Below are positions 3,291 to 52,924 of a stretch of DNA of 64,000 nucleotides, piece after piece. The stretch lies in IMG/VR virus record IMGVR_UViG_3300028864_000017; one strand, given 5' to 3'. Under the pieces are notes generated by a model. That model saw only the letters and a list, made by a program, of their open reading frames with translations. It did not search any database and was not told the origin of the DNA. Origin of the DNA: a virus. Taxonomy: Duplodnaviria; Caudoviricetes. The position numbers and the translations under genes were made by a program. Numbering within the stretch: the first letter of the stretch is position 1; each line of letters begins with the position of its first letter.

Positions 3291-4058
3291 ATGAAAGTAT
3301 TAAAATATAGTAGATATTCATTTTTAAAGGAAGCAAATCTTATAACAGAAGATTCTGAATTTCAACAATTTCAATTCGGAATCGAACCAATGGGTACAGC
3401 TGGAGGGGGAGGAGACTTTGCATTTGCTATGGATCCAGGTGCTTCATATTATAATTATCAAGACAGTCCTTACACTGATTTTTATGCAAGACAATCTGGA
3501 TTAGTATCGAATTTAGATAGAGTAATAAAAAGCTTACGTGGTCAAAATAATTTAATTTATAAAGATAGTAATCCTTTTTTAGAAGATATCGAATTATACG
3601 ATAATATCAAAATTTTAAGAATATATGAAAATAATAGTTTAAAATTAGATGTGTTTATATCATTTGAATTTGATAAAGAAGAATACTTTGGAGTGTTCAG
3701 AAACTATAATGGATTAATAAGGCCAACACTTGAATCTGAAGTATATTTTGATCCAGAATACTTATATAGATTTGATAGTGAGTATAAACTAAAATTAAGT
3801 AATTATTTTTATAAGAAATTGGAAAAATGGTTCATTCCAGATCAAGGTTTTTATAAAAATATGAAAAATGAAACTAAAGTAAAAAATAATATTGGTAAAT
3901 TATACGAAATAAATGAAAATAAAGTAGTTGAGATTTTAGGATATAATATCAATAGTAATAACAAGCCATATATTATAATGAAAGTAAATGAAGATACTTA
4001 TCATATAGAAAACAATGACTATTATTACTTTAAATGGAGATTTGAGAAATTGAAATAA
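3291..4058 (+). CDS. Hypothetical protein
   Basis: 255-aa ORF followed by a terminator. Confidence 0.75.
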   Translation: MKVLKYSRYSFLKEANLITEDSEFQQFQFGIEPMGTAGGGGDFAFAMDPGASYYNYQDSPYTDFYARQSGLVSNLDRVIKSLRGQNNLIYKDSNPFLEDIELYDNIKILRIYENNSLKLDVFISFEFDKEEYFGVFRNYNGLIRPTLESEVYFDPEYLYRFDSEYKLKLSNYFYKKLEKWFIPDQGFYKNMKNETKVKNNIGKLYEINENKVVEILGYNINSNNKPYIIMKVNEDTYHIENNDYYYFKWRFEKLK

Positions 4059-36606: not shown

Positions 36607-36945
36607 ATGAAAAAAGAAAAATATCTTGAATATCGTAAAATATTTGAAAATAATTATAAAGAACAACTAAATATTGGTAAACATGACTTAGGATTTGTTA
36701 ATTTGCATGACACAAAAAACAATATTTCAAGATTTCAAGAGTTTATTTTTATTTATAGTTGTGATATAAATTCAATATTCACTAATACTGTAAATTCAAT
36801 AGATAGAAGGAAAAGATTTATAGTTAAAAATAATAAACCAGTAATTAAAATAAGAATAGATTTATCAAATGTTCATTTAGTTGATAATTGGTCAGAGCAT
36901 TTTGGAAAAGTCGAAGAGTATTATAAAAAAAATATTAAAAAATGA
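36607..36945 (+). CDS. Hypothetical protein
   Basis: ORF in operon. Confidence 0.65.
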   Translation: MKKEKYLEYRKIFENNYKEQLNIGKHDLGFVNLHDTKNNISRFQEFIFIYSCDINSIFTNTVNSIDRRKRFIVKNNKPVIKIRIDLSNVHLVDNWSEHFGKVEEYYKKNIKK

Positions 36946-37606
36946 AATGATGGATAAAAAAATAACAGTATTTGAAAATTTAACAGCAAGTCATAATGTA
37001 GATCCTCAAAATGGATTTACTCCATTGTGTCCAACTGAGTTACCTGTAACAGATGGTGATAAAATTGTAGATGAATTAAATAAACAGAATAATCTTGTTA
37101 AATATAAAACAGTATCAAAAGATATGCATCCTGTTAATTCAATTTGGATAGCAAGTGATGAACATCCTCAATTTTCAACAATAGAAGGAGAAAATGTTGA
37201 TATTGCTTGGAAATCTCATTGTATATCAGGTACATTTGGATCTGAACTTATATCAGGACTTCCTAAAATGTGTGATTATGACTTTTTTGTAGCAAAGGGA
37301 TTTGAACCAGATTTACATCCTTACTCAAGTTGCTATCATGACTTAAATAAAAAAATATCTACAGGACTAATTGAATGGTATATTTCTAAACATATTGATA
37401 CTGTTATAGTTGGTGGATTAGCTACAAATTATTGTGTTGGATCAACTGTTATTGATTTGGTAAATGCAGGATTTGATGTTATTCTTAACCTTGGAGGATG
37501 TAAAGGAATTGGCTCAGATGAAGATATTAATAATTATGTAGATATGTTAGTCAATGATTATAATATTGTAGTTGTAAATTCTGCTGATGAAATTGAAGTA
37601 ATTTAA
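36881..37606 (+). CDS. pncA: Nicotinamidase / pyrazinamidase
   Basis: VDPQNGF, KDMHP, WKSHCISGT.G, KG..YSS, GLATNYCV; start probably MMDKK near 36947. Confidence 0.88.
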   Translation: MIIGQSILEKSKSIIKKILKNEMMDKKITVFENLTASHNVDPQNGFTPLCPTELPVTDGDKIVDELNKQNNLVKYKTVSKDMHPVNSIWIASDEHPQFSTIEGENVDIAWKSHCISGTFGSELISGLPKMCDYDFFVAKGFEPDLHPYSSCYHDLNKKISTGLIEWYISKHIDTVIVGGLATNYCVGSTVIDLVNAGFDVILNLGGCKGIGSDEDINNYVDMLVNDYNIVVVNSADEIEVI

Positions 37607-37608
37607 AA

Positions 37609-37845
37609 ATGATAGGTAAAGCAGGTGATAGAGTCATATATATTGGTTATGCTCCTGATAAAATAGTTTATGATGAATTAATTCTTGATTCAAATTATAC
37701 AATAAAATATGTAAACCATCATTCTGGTTATGATTTATATGTATTGGTTGGATTTGAAACATGCGTACCATTTATGTCAGATGAATTTGAAACATTGTCT
37801 GAATATAGAAAAAGAAAACTTGAAAAAATAAATAATTTAAAATGA
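37609..37845 (+). CDS. Hypothetical protein with C-terminal RxxK[LI] tag
   Basis: Ends YRKRKLEKINNLK. Confidence 0.65.
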   Translation: MIGKAGDRVIYIGYAPDKIVYDELILDSNYTIKYVNHHSGYDLYVLVGFETCVPFMSDEFETLSEYRKRKLEKINNLK

Positions 37846-38171
37846 TAGCATATAAATTAATGAAACAAAGAAAGAATGGTACTCTTGGTAGTTTATTTAT
37901 AAATGCTAAAGAAGTATATTCTTTTAATGTTTGGATGAATGCTGAGCTTATACCAACAAATGGTTTTTCTGAAAGATTTGGTTGGCATTGCTGTTTCACT
38001 CCAAATGCTCCACACTTGAAAGAAAATCTATCAAGTGGAGAAATAAGAGTATGGGTAGAAGTTGAAGTTGAAGGTATAAAAACTTACGATAGACCTGAAT
38101 CTCAAGGTGGATCATGGATTCTTGCAGATAAAATGAAAATTAATCGTATTGTTGATAAAAATGAATATTGA
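37842..38171 (+). CDS. Hypothetical protein
   Basis: AYKL...GWHC..RVWVEVEV, a pattern common in phage proteins. Confidence 0.7.
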   Translation: MIAYKLMKQRKNGTLGSLFINAKEVYSFNVWMNAELIPTNGFSERFGWHCCFTPNAPHLKENLSSGEIRVWVEVEVEGIKTYDRPESQGGSWILADKMKINRIVDKNEY

Positions 38172-38418
38172 TAAATCGTTAGGATGTTGGAATTTAGGAA
38201 ATTGTAGTTATTTAGATGAACTTGCATATCATCTTTATCTTAAAGATTATGATAATTGGTTTCATTCTGTAGGTTTTGAAGAACCAATAACACAATACAT
38301 ATTCTGTATGCAACATTCATATGAAAAAAACACAGGACATGTAGCACAATATTACAATAAATCAGTATTAGTAATAAGAAAAGAAAAACTTGAAGAAATA
38401 AATGGAATCAAAAAATAA
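38149..38418 (+). CDS. Hypothetical protein with C-terminal RxxK[LI] tag
   Basis: Ends IRKEKLEEINGIKK. Confidence 0.65.
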   Translation: MLIKMNIDKSLGCWNLGNCSYLDELAYHLYLKDYDNWFHSVGFEEPITQYIFCMQHSYEKNTGHVAQYYNKSVLVIRKEKLEEINGIKK

Positions 38419-38725
38419 ATATTATAAGAATTCTTTAACTGGACATATTATTTGCGAACAAACATTTGTATCAGATATTATTACTAATATTCCAACTAAG
38501 TATTATGATTTACATATGCGTGAAATTGTAGATTTTTTTGACTTGAAAGGATATTTGGAAATAAAAAAGAAAAAATTTGATTTATATAGAAGTAGCAGAT
38601 GGAATGCAGGTGAAATAAATAGTTGGTTTATAAAACCTAAAATAGAAAAAACTTTAATTGAAATAAGAAAAGAAAAACTAGAAGAACTAAATAAAATAAA
38701 AAAAAAGTATGATTGGAATGTATAA
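38402..38725 (+). CDS. Hypothetical protein with C-terminal RxxK[LI] tag
   Basis: Ends IRKEKLEELNKIKKKYDWNV. Confidence 0.65.
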   Translation: MESKNKYYKNSLTGHIICEQTFVSDIITNIPTKYYDLHMREIVDFFDLKGYLEIKKKKFDLYRSSRWNAGEINSWFIKPKIEKTLIEIRKEKLEELNKIKKKYDWNV

Positions 38726-39332
38726 GGAAATTTATGATGAAATGAATGAAAGGTTGAAATATCTTGAAAGTCAAGAACAAACTGAAGAAATAAAAAATAG
38801 AATAGATGAAATTTGCTTATCTATTGTTCATATTCAGCAAAAAATTTTATTTCAAATGGGTAGAAAACCAATGCCTCAAGAAATTGAAAGAAAATTTCTT
38901 GTTAAAGGTGAATATAAATCATTATCAGTTAATGAATATAAAATTATTCAAGGATATATTTCATCTAATCCTGCAGTTAGAATTCGCATTAAAAATGATA
39001 AAGCATATATAACTATCAAAGGAAAAACTAATGAAACTGGTGTGTCTCGCTATGAATTTGAAAAAGAAATATTAGTTGATGAAGCAAAAGAATTGATGTT
39101 ATTATGTGGAGATGGTAAAATAGATAAAACTCGTTATAATATTCAAGTTGGAAATCACATATTTGAAGTTGATGAATTTCATGGTGAGAATGAAGGATTA
39201 ACTATTGCTGAAGTTGAACTTAGTAGTGAAGATGAATCATATGATATTCCAGAATGGTTAGGTGAAGAAGTTACTGGAAATAAAGAATATTATAATTCAT
39301 ATTTGAGTAAAAATCCATATTCTAAAAAATAA
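38709..39332 (+). CDS. CYTH-domain triphosphate tunnel metalloenzyme
   Basis: EIERKFLV, IIQGY, VRIR, RYEFE, KTRY, EVDEF, AEVEL. Confidence 0.9.
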   Translation: MIGMYKEIYDEMNERLKYLESQEQTEEIKNRIDEICLSIVHIQQKILFQMGRKPMPQEIERKFLVKGEYKSLSVNEYKIIQGYISSNPAVRIRIKNDKAYITIKGKTNETGVSRYEFEKEILVDEAKELMLLCGDGKIDKTRYNIQVGNHIFEVDEFHGENEGLTIAEVELSSEDESYDIPEWLGEEVTGNKEYYNSYLSKNPYSKK

Positions 39333-39367
39333 ACTAAATATTTTATTGTATTTAAAAATAAAAGTAT

Positions 39368-39375
39368 TATCTTTG
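39368..39375 (+). promoter_or_regulatory. Bacteroidota sigma-A -7 element
   Basis: TATCTTTG upstream of pncB. Confidence 0.65.
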
Positions 39376-39404
39376 TGAAATAATTCAAATTAAAACAAAT
39401 TAAA

Positions 39405-40604
39405 ATGAAACAAATTATCAACAGTATTTTAGATACTGACCTTTACAAGTTAAGTATGATGCAGTTTGTCATAGAACATTATCCTGATGCGAAAGGAGAA
39501 TATACGTTTAATAATCGTGATAAATCTATGATTTTCAATCGTAAATCTATCAAAATTATCAAAAAACAAATCAAATTGATGGAAAATTTGAAATTGACTG
39601 ATGATGAGTATGATTATTTGAAAGAAAAAGTAGGTTATATTTCTGTCTCTGCTCGTCAATATTTAGCTGCATATAAATTTAATTCTTCACAAGTTAATAT
39701 CACTCACGAAGAAAATGGTGAACTTAACATAAAAATTGAAGGTTTTTGGAGGGATGCAATACTTTGGGAGGTTCCTTTGATGGCTATCATATCAGAAGTT
39801 TATTTCAAAGTGATGGATAAAGATTGGAACATGGATGGACAAGTAGAATTAATCAACGAAAAAGGAAAACTATTAAGTGATGCTGGAGCGACATTTGCTG
39901 ATTTTGGTACTCGCAGAAGACGTAATTTTATGACACAAGATATTGTGGTTCGTGAATTATGTAAATATACAGGATTTGTTGGTACAAGTAATCCATTTCT
40001 TGCAATGAAGCATGGTGTTAAAGCTACAGGAACATGTGCTCATGAGGCTATATCTGGTGTAGCAGCATTAGAAAGTCTTAATCATCCTAATAAGATTTTC
40101 ATGAAAAGATGGCAAGAAACATTTCAAGGTGACTTAGGTACAATGTTACCTGATACTTTTGGACTTGAATCTTTCTTATCTGATTTTTCTTTACAAGATG
40201 CAAAATTGTGGGATAGTGTTAGACATGATAGTGGAGATGCTCACCTTTTCACTGATAAAATTGTTGAAAATTATAAAAAATTAAATATTAATCCAATGAC
40301 AAAATCTATTATTTTTAGTAATGCATTGGATGTTTATTCTGCTATTGAATTGATAGAATATTGTAAAAATAAAATTCTTTGCTCTTTTGGTATTGGAACT
40401 CATTTTACAAATGATTTCAAAAAAGAGAGTGTTACGAATTTAAAAAGTAAACCAATGAATATGGTAATTAAACTTACTCGTATGAATGGAGTTCCTTGTG
40501 TTAAATTATCAGATGATCCTGGTAAAGCAATTGGAGATTCTAAAATGGTTGAAATAATGAAATATATTCATTTTGATATTATAAAAAATAATTATGAAAA
40601 ATGA
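39405..40604 (+). CDS. pncB: Nicotinate phosphoribosyltransferase
   Basis: LDTDLYKLSM, DFGTRRR, GTCAHE, RHDSGD, FGIGT, KLSD.PGK. Confidence 0.93.
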   Translation: MKQIINSILDTDLYKLSMMQFVIEHYPDAKGEYTFNNRDKSMIFNRKSIKIIKKQIKLMENLKLTDDEYDYLKEKVGYISVSARQYLAAYKFNSSQVNITHEENGELNIKIEGFWRDAILWEVPLMAIISEVYFKVMDKDWNMDGQVELINEKGKLLSDAGATFADFGTRRRRNFMTQDIVVRELCKYTGFVGTSNPFLAMKHGVKATGTCAHEAISGVAALESLNHPNKIFMKRWQETFQGDLGTMLPDTFGLESFLSDFSLQDAKLWDSVRHDSGDAHLFTDKIVENYKKLNINPMTKSIIFSNALDVYSAIELIEYCKNKILCSFGIGTHFTNDFKKESVTNLKSKPMNMVIKLTRMNGVPCVKLSDDPGKAIGDSKMVEIMKYIHFDIIKNNYEK

Positions 40605-42954: not shown

Positions 42955-44031
42955 ATGACAAAAATTATAACAAGTCCAGAAAGATTTGATGAAGAAAAAG
43001 GAAATAATGTGTGTGTTTTTTTAGGTGGTCCTATTCAAGGTGCTCCTAATTGGCAAAATGATATATGTAATGATTTATCAGGATATAAAAATTTAGTAAT
43101 TACTAATCCAAGAAGAAAATCATTAGACAAATCAAAATTTAATTTTGATGAACAAGTAAAATGGGAGACAGAATATTTAAATGAATCTGATATTTTAGTT
43201 TTTTGGATTCCAAATGAAGAAGAAAAAATAGAAGGTAGAATGTATGGTCAAACTACTAGATTTGAAGTCGGTGAATGGATATCAAAATGTAGTGAGAAAA
43301 TAATAATTGGAATTGATGATGAATTTCCAATGAAAAGATATATTAAAAATAGACTTGAAAACGATTATAATGTTAAAGTTCTTAATAATTATAAAGATGT
43401 TTTAAGCGAAGTTAAAAATAAAATAGATTTTTTATCTAATTCTAAACCAGATACTTTTTTTACATCTGATGATCACTTTGGAAGTAAAAGAACACTAGAA
43501 TTATCTAAACGTCCTTTCACTTCAGTTGAAGAAATGAATCAATGTATGATTAATTTCTGGAATTCAGTAGTTAAACCTAATGATAATGTTTATAATTTGG
43601 GTGATTTTGGTGATTATTCATTCATTAATAAATTGAATGGTAATATATTTTTAATATTAGGAAATTATGAAATTGATGAAATGAATAAAGATTACAAAGG
43701 TGATTTTAATTTATTTAAGAAAATGTTGTTGAAAAAAGGGTTTAAAAACGTGTATAATGATTTGATAATTTCTACTAATATTGATGATGAAAAGGTTTTA
43801 CCATTTAAAGAATTTGATAAAAAAGATAATTTATTTATGACTCATGAACCATTAAATGCTGATAAAAAGTATTTTACTCTATTTGGACATATACACGGTA
43901 GACAAATGGTAAAAAGATATGGACTAGATGTTGGTGTAGATGGACATCATTTTAAACCAATTAATATGAAAGAAGTGCTGTTTTATAAAGAAGCAATTGA
44001 AAAATTTTATGATAATAACGTATTTGAATAA
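42955..44031 (+). CDS. Fusion: nucleoside 2-deoxyribosyltransferase-like domain plus calcineurin-like metallophosphoesterase
   Basis: VFLGGPIQ..NWQ..NPRR..QVKWE; then SDDHFG, LGDFG, GNYE, HEP, GHIH. Confidence 0.8.
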   Translation: MTKIITSPERFDEEKGNNVCVFLGGPIQGAPNWQNDICNDLSGYKNLVITNPRRKSLDKSKFNFDEQVKWETEYLNESDILVFWIPNEEEKIEGRMYGQTTRFEVGEWISKCSEKIIIGIDDEFPMKRYIKNRLENDYNVKVLNNYKDVLSEVKNKIDFLSNSKPDTFFTSDDHFGSKRTLELSKRPFTSVEEMNQCMINFWNSVVKPNDNVYNLGDFGDYSFINKLNGNIFLILGNYEIDEMNKDYKGDFNLFKKMLLKKGFKNVYNDLIISTNIDDEKVLPFKEFDKKDNLFMTHEPLNADKKYFTLFGHIHGRQMVKRYGLDVGVDGHHFKPINMKEVLFYKEAIEKFYDNNVFE

Positions 44032-44033
44032 TA

Positions 44034-44405
44034 ATGAAAACAATTTCAGTGAAACAACCATGGTCATATCTAATATGTTCAGGAATAAAAGATGTTGAAA
44101 ATCGTAGTTGGAAAACTAATTTTAGAGGAAGAGTATTGATTCATTCTTCTAAAAAAATATCAGATGCTATTATGAGTATAGAACAACAAAATAATATTTT
44201 ATTTGATATAAATAAAAAAATGAAATTTGGTTCAATTATAGGAAGTGTTGAAATTGTTGATTGTATAATAAATTCTAACTCAATTTGGGCTGAAAAAGGT
44301 ACATATCATTGGATATTAAAAAATCCAATATTATTTGATGCTCCAATTGAAAATATAAAAGGAAAATTGAATTTCTGGAATTATGATATTGATAATTTAT
44401 ATTAA
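44034..44405 (+). CDS. ASCH-domain protein
   Basis: ISVKQPWS.LI..GIKDVENRSW.T.FRG.VLIH. Confidence 0.88.
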   Translation: MKTISVKQPWSYLICSGIKDVENRSWKTNFRGRVLIHSSKKISDAIMSIEQQNNILFDINKKMKFGSIIGSVEIVDCIINSNSIWAEKGTYHWILKNPILFDAPIENIKGKLNFWNYDIDNLY

Positions 44406-48495: not shown

Positions 48496-48675
48496 ATGAA
48501 ATCAAAAAGTGTATTATTAGTTTTCGTTGTTTCTGTGATGTTGTGTAGTTGTTCACAAAATGGACTTTATAATAGTAAAAATACTCACAAAAACAGCACA
48601 AAGAATCATGAAGTCAATTCAAATGGTTTATATGCATATGAATATTTCAAAAATAATACAATATATATTTGGTAG
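48496..48675 (+). CDS. Small lipoprotein (59 aa), not in the ORF track
   Basis: MKSKSVLLVFVVSVMLCSCSQN... signal peptide II with lipobox; own TACTTTTG promoter at 48459-48466. Confidence 0.7.
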   Translation: MKSKSVLLVFVVSVMLCSCSQNGLYNSKNTHKNSTKNHEVNSNGLYAYEYFKNNTIYIW

Positions 48676-48699
48676 ATTAAAAACTTTATTGTAATTTTG
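48668..48699 (+). promoter_or_regulatory. Bacteroidota sigma-A promoter for the interrupted tRNA
   Basis: TTTG-N20-TAATTTTG; near-identical to 49436-49467. Confidence 0.8.
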
Positions 48700-48717
48700 T
48701 TTTAAAATATAAGAGAT

Positions 48718-48903
48718 CGGTTGGTAGCTCAATAGGTAGAGCAGTTGGATTAGTTAATTCTAATCGTATTAATAAGAAAAAATTTTAAAGAAGTAAGTGA
48801 TTCAATATAATTAGCTAATGTGGAGAATGACTGAAAATGAGAGATTAATATTGTTAATATCATAACAGGCAAAAGATAGGGGGTTCGAATCCTTCCCAAC
48901 TGA
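48718..48903 (+). tRNA. Interrupted tRNA-like gene (about 110-nt insert in the anticodon region; identity undetermined)
   Basis: Acceptor CGGTTGG/CCAACTG-A, D-arm GCTC-AATAGGTA-GAGC and T-arm GGGGG-TTCGAAT-CCTTC flank an AT-rich insert. Confidence 0.6.
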
Positions 48904-48919
48904 CAATAAATTATGAAAA

Positions 48920-49390
48920 ATGGAAAAAATTTTAATATTTAAAAATTTTAAGGATATTCCATTTGGAAAAATATTTCAAATAAGGTTTAAAGAACCTATG
49001 GGAATAAAAGAATGTCCATATTTATATAGATGGACATTAATTATTTTTGGATATTCATTTAGATTACACCACTGGCTTAGATCAGATGATAGACGTTTTT
49101 TTCATGATCACTCATGTGATTTAATATCAATAATAATAAAAGGCAAATACTTTAATGTAATACCAGATGAAAATGGAAATCCTGTTAAGTATTTAGCTGA
49201 AGCATGGAAGCCACGTTTTATGAAAGCAGAACAAAGACATTACTTAGATATACCAAAAGAAGGAGCTTGGACAATTTTATTGTGTTCAAAATCATATCAT
49301 AAATGGGGATTCTATGTGAATAATCACAAATGGAGACCATTAAGATATTTTCATAAGTTTGGAATTATTCAAACAGCAGATTATCAATAA
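48920..49390 (+). CDS. Cupin-like hypothetical protein
   Basis: RLHHW.RSDD..FHDH...IIKGKY..H pattern. Confidence 0.6.
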   Translation: MEKILIFKNFKDIPFGKIFQIRFKEPMGIKECPYLYRWTLIIFGYSFRLHHWLRSDDRRFFHDHSCDLISIIIKGKYFNVIPDENGNPVKYLAEAWKPRFMKAEQRHYLDIPKEGAWTILLCSKSYHKWGFYVNNHKWRPLRYFHKFGIIQTADYQ

Positions 49391-49435: not shown

Positions 49436-49467
49436 TTTGGTAGATTGAAAACTTTATTGTACTTTTG
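49436..49467 (+). promoter_or_regulatory. Bacteroidota sigma-A promoter of the leader/tRNA operon
   Basis: TTTG-N20-TACTTTTG. Confidence 0.8.
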
Positions 49468-49777: not shown

Positions 49778-49862
49778 GTACCTGGAGCTCGGTTGGAGAC
49801 GTAAGTCGTTGAGCCAATGTCTTTTAAACATTAGGTCGTGGGTTCAAGTCCCATCAGGTACA
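49778..49862 (+). tRNA. tRNA-Lys(UUU) with expanded D-loop
   Basis: GTACCTG/CAGGTAC-A; anticodon arm AATGT-CTTTTAA-ACATT; 20-nt D-loop containing GAC-GTAA-GTC. Confidence 0.85.
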
Positions 49863-49866
49863 CAAT

Positions 49867-50472: not shown

Positions 50473-50553
50473 GCGTCAGTATGCAAGTGGCTAAAGCTGT
50501 TGGTCTCCAAAACCAATCCGTAAGGTTCGTGGGTTCAAATCCTGCCTGGCGTG
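50473..50553 (+). tRNA. tRNA-Trp(CCA) with 12-nt variable region
   Basis: GCGTCAG/CTGGCGT-G; TTGGT-CTCCAAA-ACCAA; variable region TCCGTAAGGTTC. Confidence 0.85.
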
Positions 50554-50586
50554 CAATGATATTCTAAGAGTAGAATATTATAACTT

Positions 50587-50685: not shown

Positions 50686-50773
50686 GGTAAGTTAAGCAGT
50701 CAATTGGAGTGGCGACTAGCCTTGAAAACTAGGTTTCGTTTAATCGGATGGGGGTCGGGTCCTCAACTTACCG
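50686..50773 (+). tRNA. tRNA-Ser(UGA), divergent T-loop
   Basis: GGTAAGT/ACTTACC-G; loop CTTGAAA; long variable arm; T-loop GTCGGGT. Confidence 0.7.
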
Positions 50774-50787
50774 CAAATTATTAAAAA

Positions 50788-50860
50788 GGAGATTAAGCTA
50801 ATCTGGTGAAAGCGTATGCCTGAAGAGCATGAGAGATTGGATCAAAACCAATAATCTCCA
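50788..50860 (+). tRNA. tRNA-Phe(GAA), second copy
   Basis: GGAGATT/AATCTCC-A; TATGC-CTGAAGA-GCATG; T-loop ATCAAAA. Confidence 0.82.
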
Positions 50861-50865
50861 CATAA

Positions 50866-50985: not shown

Positions 50986-51072
50986 GTCACTTGTAGTCGG
51001 TAAGGGATGCCGCCCTGATTGTGGTTCAGGAATACTTAATAGTTAATGTGGGTTCGAATCCCATCTGGTGAC
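50986..51072 (+). tRNA. tRNA-His(GUG) with G-1:C73 and 17-nt variable region
   Basis: CCTGA-TTGTGGT-TCAGG; T-arm GTGGG-TTCGAAT-CCCAT. Confidence 0.8.
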
Positions 51073-51081
51073 CAAATATAT

Positions 51082-51159: not shown

Positions 51160-51256
51160 AAAAAAGATTATTGATGAAGTGCTGGAAGCCTTAGTTCGAT
51201 TCTGATAGTCACTGATTAGTCATCAGTAAAGGTTGACAACCTTTGTAATCTTTTTT
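51160..51256 (+). ncRNA. Unassigned structured RNA inside the tRNA array
   Basis: 11-bp closing stem, T-loop-like GTTCGATTC and two perfect internal hairpins. Confidence 0.5.
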
Positions 51257-52150: not shown

Positions 52151-52924
52151 ATGTACTACGTAATACAAGAAAATACTTTCAAAGAAGAAAATTATGATAA
52201 TTTAGTTGAAACATTAGATAGAATGAAATTACCTTATGAAGTAGTTAAGGTTTTGCCATTTGTAGAAGATTTTGAGTTTAAAACTAATAGAAAAGATGTA
52301 TTTTGCTTTGGTTCTGTTAAAATGGCAAGATTAGCAAAAAAATACAAATGGTTTCCTGGTTCTCAATTGAATGATAATCATGATTATAGAGTTTATAGTA
52401 AATATTACAAGGAAAATTTGTTGAATTATGATTCAATAGTTCAAAAATTTGGAGATGATATTAATGAAAGGACTTTATTTTTTGCTAGACCGTGTGAAGA
52501 TACAAAAACATTTACTGGAAAGGTATTTGATATGTATGAATGGATAGAATTTAGAGATAATCATTTGAATAGTGAATATGAAACTTCATTAACAAAAGAT
52601 ACTGATATTCAAGTTAGTTCTGTTAAAAAAATAACAAAAGAATTTAGGTTTTGGATAGTTGGAGGAAAAGTTGTGACTGGAAGTCTATATAGAATGGGAT
52701 ATTTTATTAATAGAAGTGAATTAGTTGATGATGGAGCATTAGAATTTTGCAAAGAAATGGTTAGTATTTATAATATATCAAATTCTTTTGTGATGGATAT
52801 TTGTGAAGTGATTATTGATGGTAATCCTGAATATAAAATAATTGAATTGGGATGTATTAATTCGGCAGGTTTTTATTCTGCAAATATGCCTAAGTTAATT
52901 AATGCTCTTGAAGAAGAATTTTAA
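52151..52924 (+). CDS. ATP-grasp protein (R2K / DUF4343-like)
   Basis: FFARPCEDTKTFTG, EFRFWIV.GKVV, MDI..IIELGCINSAGFY. Confidence 0.8.
   Translation: MYYVIQENTFKEENYDNLVETLDRMKLPYEVVKVLPFVEDFEFKTNRKDVFCFGSVKMARLAKKYKWFPGSQLNDNHDYRVYSKYYKENLLNYDSIVQKFGDDINERTLFFARPCEDTKTFTGKVFDMYEWIEFRDNHLNSEYETSLTKDTDIQVSSVKKITKEFRFWIVGGKVVTGSLYRMGYFINRSELVDDGALEFCKEMVSIYNISNSFVMDICEVIIDGNPEYKIIELGCINSAGFYSANMPKLINALEEEF

Follow-up and report, generated by a model that had tools for sequence, protein, structure and literature searches.

What kind of gene lies at positions 48718-48903 (+ strand) of the window, i.e. the whole 64,000-nt stretch of viral DNA analyzed here, where a tRNA-like sequence is opened in its anticodon arm by a long insert? 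An initial annotation proposed a protein-spliced intron, a tRNA mimic, or the remnant of an integration event, and overlooked a gene that begins 16 nt downstream of the RNA and encodes a cupin. Relatives of the RNA occur in dozens of jumbo phages, and comparison among them makes it highly probable (roughly 85%) that the product is an unspliced, non-decoding tRNA mimic partnered with the adjacent cupin.

The window RNA and its surroundings

The window has a GC content of 24% and, besides a tRNA cluster and genes for NAD salvage, encodes a terminase of the T4 type and a fragment of DNA polymerase B. Its sequence is contained in peat metagenomes and, given that related contigs measure 640-675 kb, it can be assigned to a jumbo phage. 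Three regions (36881-40604, 42955-44405, and 52151-52924) encode an isochorismatase-type hydrolase, a CYTH protein, and a nicotinate phosphoribosyltransferase (NAD salvage), together with, near the tRNA cluster, an ASCH protein, an R2K ATP-grasp protein, and a fusion of nucleoside deoxyribosyltransferase and phosphoesterase. The cluster itself contains a tRNA-Lys(UUU) with an enlarged D region that default ARAGORN misses (49778-49863), and several odd tRNAs (50473-50554, 50689-50774, 50788-50861, and 50987-51073), including Trp and His tRNAs with long variable arms, a Phe(GAA) tRNA with G37, and a second Ser(UGA)-like gene that neither ARAGORN nor Rfam detects. An unannotated element at 51163-51254, whose long terminal stem encloses parts resembling a D loop and a T arm, is reminiscent of Y RNA (z -2.2; no Rfam match).

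For comparison, approximately 450 loci (labelled L###) were gathered by DNA pattern scans and by searches with the downstream cupin protein. tRNA-like RNAs were recognized by an automatic parser that is blind to loop bases 34-38, and gene-content searches (RtcB, EndA, aminoacyl-tRNA synthetases) were performed on five related phage records.

The window RNA comprises 186 nt from position 1 to the discriminator A73 (48903), CCA not being encoded. The intact arms recognized in the initial annotation were all located: a 7-bp acceptor stem (48718-48724 with 48896-48902) including C1:G72 and G2.U71, a 4-bp D stem (48727-48730 with 48739-48742), and a T arm (48879-48895). The stretch holding the acceptor 5' strand (C1, G2) and the D arm (48718-48743) is identical in L001 and L003. 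The anticodon loop spans 120 nt and holds a folded 113-nt expansion, consisting of a 6-bp hairpin, H1 (48748-48765), and an irregular rod, H2 (48766-48860), with purine-rich internal loops and an apical loop containing the palindrome TAGCTA (48812-48817). The 110 nt that ARAGORN treats as an intron have a GC content of 21%, in agreement with the insert described earlier as AT-rich, and fold better than shuffled sequences (z -2.4; 2 of 200 shuffles). The tRNA arms do not differ between the window, L001, and L003; in the rod two pairs show compensatory change, and H1 keeps its stem (extended in L003) while its loop changes. Positions 34-38 (A34, A35, C36, A37, G38; 48864-48868), on the 3' side of the anticodon loop, are single-stranded and are followed by the 3' strand of the anticodon stem, a 5-nt variable loop with G45, the T arm, and the acceptor 3' strand with A73 (48869-48903).

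An anticodon stem, previously considered impossible to reconstruct, can be placed through relatives that have the full 5-bp stem: positions 27-31 (48744-48748) pair weakly with 48869-48873 through only three Watson-Crick pairs, which sets AAC (48864-48866) at 34-36. The G27.A43 mismatch is common to L310 and L420, and an alternative pairing of 48744-48746 with AAC is possible and could hide the latter. With its three Watson-Crick pairs and possible AAC masking, the window copy appears to be among the least regular members of the family. Default ARAGORN and Rfam both miss the RNA; with introns allowed, ARAGORN reports a tRNA-Met(CAT) with a 110-nt intron, a call that we reject because L001, L003, and a peat strain do not preserve CAT (48861-48863), whereas all of them keep A35-C36.

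A promoter-like site at 48668-48699 (+ strand) consists of TTTG, a 20-nt spacer, and TAnnTTTG, and is also readable as -35/-10 elements. It matches a second copy upstream of the tRNA cluster (49436-49467, + strand) at 30 of 32 positions, and the pattern occurs twice in the window and in none of 100 shuffles. The Bacteroidetes promoter consensus is TTTG-N20-TAnnTTTG. The match reported initially holds, and the putative promoter fits the Bacteroidetes type at least as well as sigma-A, which in turn suggests a Bacteroidetes host. The predicted promoter probably drives the RNA and the cupin together. In the close relative L003 the RNA is not directly preceded by such a promoter, indicating that the promoter, although present in the window, is not a fixed part of the element.

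Selection on the element, suspected from the outset, is supported by three peat runs, in which strains with differences at 18 of 140 bases (~13%) of the flanks share one contig across 48714-48906. The single well-supported substitution within that interval (48863, T to A) abolishes the ARAGORN CAT.

The cupin gene and its linkage to the RNA

The partner gene (48920-49390, + strand) encodes a 156-aa monocupin assigned to phrog_4786, 'cysteine dioxygenase'. It is basic (pI 9.6) and aromatic, has invariant His62, His64, and His107, and is 60-80% identical across very different phages. Its predicted structure is a single barrel (pLDDT 90) of the small RmlC type that aligns with many cupins at Z about 11, the top matches being cupins of small-molecule metabolism and seed storage proteins; fold searches returned generic cupins only, and a sequence search of the PDB returned no match. 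The protein resembles cysteine dioxygenase type I in its monocupin fold, its HDH...H triad, and a TM score of about 0.6 to a cysteine dioxygenase cluster. Its assignment to that activity, however, is a prediction: no Pfam family, PF05995 included, is matched at E 0.05, many unrelated cupins score equally, and extra basic N- and C-terminal parts are present.

The cupin adjoins 27 of 34 RNA loci, 16 of which were found through the DNA pattern alone. Conversely, the RNA lies beside the cupin in at least 66 of 70 cupin clusters (95% identity), 42 by the strict parser test and the rest by eye, weak candidates being those of L185, L422, L435, and L444. As some of the 70 clusters had been found through the RNA, five loci were picked blind from other collections, and in each of them the RNA is present and has A35-C36 in register, as recognized by the parser in three and by eye in two. 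The strict test was positive in 14 of 313 control loci, namely five cupin loci in which the gene had been missed or lay at or past the edge, three contigs of at most 2.5 kb, and six ordinary tRNA-Val with 7-nt loops; no RNA was found in full-length control loci lacking the cupin. Remote cupin homologues in small temperate phages have no RNA alongside, indicating that the cupin fold does not need the RNA. Taken together, the conserved RNA and the linked cupin point to a two-part RNA-enzyme system in phages.

The RNA usually lies just upstream of the cupin on the same strand, as expected if it were a cis-acting leader through which ValRS or valine status controls the cupin gene. Against such a leader, which we regard as very unlikely, the RNA is downstream of the cupin in eight loci (L029, L031, L396, L415, L420, L432, L434, and L457), up to 3.2 kb away (L028), and doubled in L372 and L373. 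This variability in side, distance, and copy number argues for action in trans. An amino-methyltransferase-like gene lies between the RNA and the cupin in about eight loci (L017-L019, L027, L372-L374, and L431), including all loci with GAA-type RNAs.

Other features were observed at individual loci. In L415 the gene directly upstream of the cupin at 3980 looks Rid-like by eye (chorismatase FkbO/Hyg5 type), and L027 carries a tRNA-Asn(GUU) with an apparent group I intron (3747-4017) 250 nt upstream of the family RNA. Amber suppressor tRNAs (CUA) directly precede a minimal family RNA and the cupin in L023 (2342-2414) and L025 (2556-2709), which suggests that these phages may be recoded.

Conservation, decoding, and synthetase recognition

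Family members share a tRNA body with an anticodon stem of 5 bp, and their loop, of 6 to more than 200 nt, keeps its last five bases in the 34-38 register, any extra sequence (from none to about 200 nt) being accommodated on its 5' side; L423 and L455 are minimal members. Near cupin genes the parser recovered 45 distinct valine-type RNAs, with A73, A35-C36, and C1:G72 (40) or A1:U72 (5); these are related by descent, such that statistics on them overstate the support. Their loops measure 6-160 nt, their acceptor and anticodon stems are paired in 40-45 of the 45 rows with several pair types, all four bases occur at positions 32, 33, 34, and 37, and 17 of them have T-stem insertions of 1-89 nt between positions 51 and 52. 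In the sister clade (L017-L019), 60 pairs are predicted, of which 12 show compensatory change; five of these 12 lie within the insert. A decaying tRNA or integration scar, to which one might ascribe the weak anticodon stem of the window lineage and the degenerate T loop of L017, can practically be discounted, given the RNA shared by flank-divergent strains, the compensatory changes in arms and insert, and the recurring gene link.

Long and short forms of the RNA are intermingled across the cupin tree, as expected for an expansion site. Predicted hairpin loops of 33 long inserts contain a palindrome of at least 4 nt in 31 of 60 cases versus 9.3 +/- 2.2 in shuffles (maximum 14), and G/C-containing palindromes number 22 versus 3.5, counts that are inflated by kinship among the inserts. 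The palindromes differ in sequence (AGCU, GAUC, GGCC, UGCA, AAUU, GCGC), which suggests kissing loops within or between molecules, possibly including H1 with the rod.

Compared with a canonical tRNA, family members have the acceptor, D, and T arms and lack the 7-nt loop with Y32, U33, and a purine at 37. Judging from this pattern, the family RNAs are predicted not to serve in ribosomal decoding, spliced or unspliced; the mimic proposed initially is supported. ARAGORN anticodons within the family are arbitrary (Met, Stop, Ile, Val, Leu).

Splicing by proteins, in which the insert would be excised and the halves joined by RtcB into a working tRNA-Val or tRNA-Met, appears quite improbable. Ligation would be possible, since RtcB was found in all five related records; unexplained tRNA introns have been reported in Lak phages (PMC6784885), and short inserts of a different class, located in other tRNAs of phages, look removable. 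However, the endonuclease search proposed alongside that for RtcB gave no EndA-type enzyme in the five records, although a nuclease of another kind might act, and a single excision would restore a canonical loop in only 13 of the 40 valine-type members with loops longer than 7 nt, at three different cut points and with no sequence shared by the insert ends. In the comparison with uninterrupted relatives, also advocated at the outset, insert-free members have non-canonical loops of 6-12 nt without U33 or a purine at 37. The loss of CAT described above likewise argues against restoration of a tRNA-Met, and the insert, whose length had already made a group I intron doubtful, matches no group I or II model in Rfam. 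DNA contigs from the sequencing runs contain no joint removing just the insert, an observation on DNA that is silent on splicing.

Which synthetase might recognize such an RNA can be approached through identity elements. Those for valine are A35, C36, A73, G45, and, as a minor element, G20, and a G.U at the third or fourth pair of the acceptor is detrimental to charging (PMC9976931). With its register taken from relatives, the window RNA has A35, C36, A73, and G45 and no G.U at pairs 3-4, as does the family, and its D loop carries U in place of G20. Among RNAs of this kind, A35-C36 occurs in 45 of the 60 located near the cupin versus 14 of the 55 located elsewhere, the parser being blind to both bases. 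G45 is present in 41 of 43 family RNAs, a count biased by the parser's preference for the usual variable loop, and G.U is found at acceptor pair 2 in 19 of 45 members, at pair 3 in two, and at pair 4 in one. Phages of Caulobacter, Brevundimonas, and Rhizobium, and L431, carry the triplet GAA, and a few others GAU. Phe identity requires G34, and G34 is present in all six GAA-type copies; A35 is common to the NAC, GAA, and GAU types, and the C1:G72/A73 acceptor end is kept in most clades. A class Ia synthetase search of the five related records gave a single match, in one record.

The acceptor end itself is of proline type: C1:G72 with A73 occurs in 97 of 97 ordinary phage tRNA-Pro versus 2 of 29 tRNA-Val. 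A tRNA with a proline acceptor and a valine anticodon could be a proline-charged mistranslating or frameshifting tRNA, for which the Streptomyces tRNA-ProX type provides a model; C1:G72 with A73 in 40 of 45 members and the existence of short members with 8-nt loops would suit this role. We hold it to be highly unlikely, as G35 and G36, strong determinants of proline identity, are replaced by A35-C36, U33 and purine 37 are not kept, and long inserts and T-stem insertions block decoding. Since the proline anticodon determinants are missing, C1:G72/A73 is read instead as a mark for the partner cupin.

The reading that we favor, tentatively and at somewhat below even odds for the mechanism as a whole, is that of a valine-charged, non-ribosomal carrier for the cupin. 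It is favored by the enrichment of A35-C36 near the cupin, the confinement of most G.U pairs to pair 2, and the fixation of G34 in GAA types; the proline-type acceptor end, the 3-bp anticodon stem in the window, and the encoding of CCA in only 11 of 45 members speak against it. In addition, plant-virus valine mimics retain 7-nt loops, as opposed to the 120-nt loop of the window RNA. In such a mechanism (i) the promoter would transcribe RNA and cupin jointly, (ii) RNase P, 3' trimming, and CCA addition would mature the RNA like a tRNA, (iii) host ValRS would read A35, C36, A73, and G45 and charge it with valine (Phe for GAA or Ile for GAU in small clades), (iv) the broken anticodon loop and T-stem insertions would exclude it from EF-Tu and the ribosome, and (v) the cupin, recognizing the C1:G72/A73 end, would act on the RNA-bound amino acid, with a further step added by the methyltransferase in some phages. 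The long insert would serve as an optional scaffold, with palindromic loops that may form kissing contacts inside one molecule or between molecules.

The main competitor, possible if rather unlikely, is a decoy or sensor ribonucleoprotein, in which the cupin-bound tRNA-Val mimic would soak up or sense an anticodon nuclease, a tRNA-modifying toxin, or ValRS, of host or rival-phage origin, and amino acid chemistry would not be the point. It fits the same conservation pattern and linkage, as well as the basic, aromatic cupin surface and the RtcB carried by these phages. MazF-type toxins cut at ACA, which positions 35-37 resemble in 28 of 45 members, and modification of host ValRS by T4 offers a precedent. 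On the other hand, 17 of 45 members have U, G, or C rather than A at position 37, which breaks the ACA site, a conserved three-His site is needless for a decoy, and synthetase rules better explain the switching among NAC, GAA, and GAU types, G34 being fixed only in the type whose synthetase needs it. Improbable, in our estimate, is that the cupin, with the optional methyltransferase, modifies a base such as A35 of this RNA or of host tRNAs, the RNA being substrate or guide. A35 is indeed the sole loop base common to all clades, and the amino-methyltransferase-like gene noted above could assist; however, the cupin matches RmlC-type barrels rather than AlkB or JmjC enzymes, and the methyltransferase is absent from most loci, including the window.

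Known systems and biological meaning

The valine-accepting tRNA-like structures of plant viruses (TLS-Val; TYMV, PMC9976931) are likewise non-decoding mimics that present A35 and C36 to ValRS and tolerate inserted stem-loops. They differ in being located at the 3' termini of RNA genomes and in combining a 7-nt loop with an acceptor that forms a pseudoknot, whereas the phage RNA comes from its own gene in a DNA phage, has complete D and T arms together with an opened loop, and is accompanied by a partner enzyme. Similarity to tmRNA/SmpB (RF00023) lies in tRNA ends around a large structured insert that emerges from the anticodon arm and in a dedicated protein partner; in contrast, the phage RNA has G3-C70 rather than G3.U70, an intact 4-bp D stem, no conserved tag frame, an optional insert, and a cupin as partner. 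A tmRNA was rejected as an identity for the RNA, the short frame resembling a tag start after the central loop being found in the window and L001 and in no other members. YrlA/Ro60 (RF02553) also pairs a tRNA-mimicking RNA with a protein encoded alongside, in phages too, but the tRNA domain of YrlA is internal and its ends form the Ro60 stem, whereas the ends of the phage RNA form a normal acceptor; RF02553 has no match at 48718-48903. T4 species I RNA (rnaC), a stable RNA of unknown function from a phage tRNA cluster, shares the T arm; it lacks a D arm and an anticodon stem, is missed by the parser, has no cupin alongside, and is an analogue only.

Closest in setting are the tRNA 'introns' of Lak phages (Devoto 2019, PMC6784885), inserts in the anticodon region of tRNAs from Bacteroidetes megaphages that belong to no Rfam class and for which splicing has not been shown. 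They are read as introns of Tyr and Thr tRNAs, whereas excision from the RNA described here restores no tRNA and a cupin is linked (the Lak inserts being set apart by their description). A further class, found in many phage tRNAs (e.g. L130:6628-6745, L132:507-620, L137:119-237, L149:9329-9444, and L097:884-998), carries an insert of 40-60 nt in the anticodon stem, near position 28/29, consisting of a hairpin followed by CAGCAA, with no cupin nearby. In cases read by eye, removal of this insert gives a near-normal anticodon arm, and the class looks like true short introns of no known type; the theta ribozyme paper does not mention inserts in tRNAs. Six gut phage loci (L063, L095, L096, L109, L113, and L120) display yet another arrangement, a nested, permuted tRNA body whose anticodon loop holds a second T arm and then a D-like arm. 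A nested second T arm was rejected as a feature of the family inserts, being present in 1 of 37 and absent from the window.

No description of the RNA or of the RNA-cupin pair was found in the literature searched, which lay mostly outside subscription journals. The Rfam search suggested at the outset identified no family either in the window or in 12 loci that contain relatives, save one marginal tRNA match. A scan of GTDB with one pattern, covering part of the family, gave five matches, none of them a family member, and blastn of the window element against cultured phages returned fragments only. Of the closest known systems, plant-virus mimics, tmRNA, YrlA, T4 species I RNA, and Lak introns each fail a defining test. 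Five cultured phages carry the RNA, unannotated (Caulobacter phages CcrColossus and CcrPW, Brevundimonas phage Bajun, Rhizobium phage RHph_Y1_11, and Paraglaciecola GD virus 1), making it directly testable; CcrColossus has two copies (NC_019406, about 241460-242000), and the RNA of GD virus 1 is at about 114000-114125 of MW805361.

The broadest proposal, still more tentative than the carrier mechanism on its own, is that jumbo phages of several host phyla may encode an aminoacyl-carrier RNA for which the host synthetase is borrowed, the ribosome barred, and the amino acid modified by the cupin, with inserts that self-assemble via palindromic kissing loops. The findings caution that some megaphage 'tRNA introns' are not introns. 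If correct, the proposal would add a phage RNA-protein module beside tmRNA-SmpB and Y RNA-Ro60, would offer a lead for a large phage protein family mislabelled 'cysteine dioxygenase' (684 clusters at 90% identity), and would provide a scaffold of tRNA type with room for 200-nt inserts that is charged yet untranslated, a combination useful for RNA engineering.
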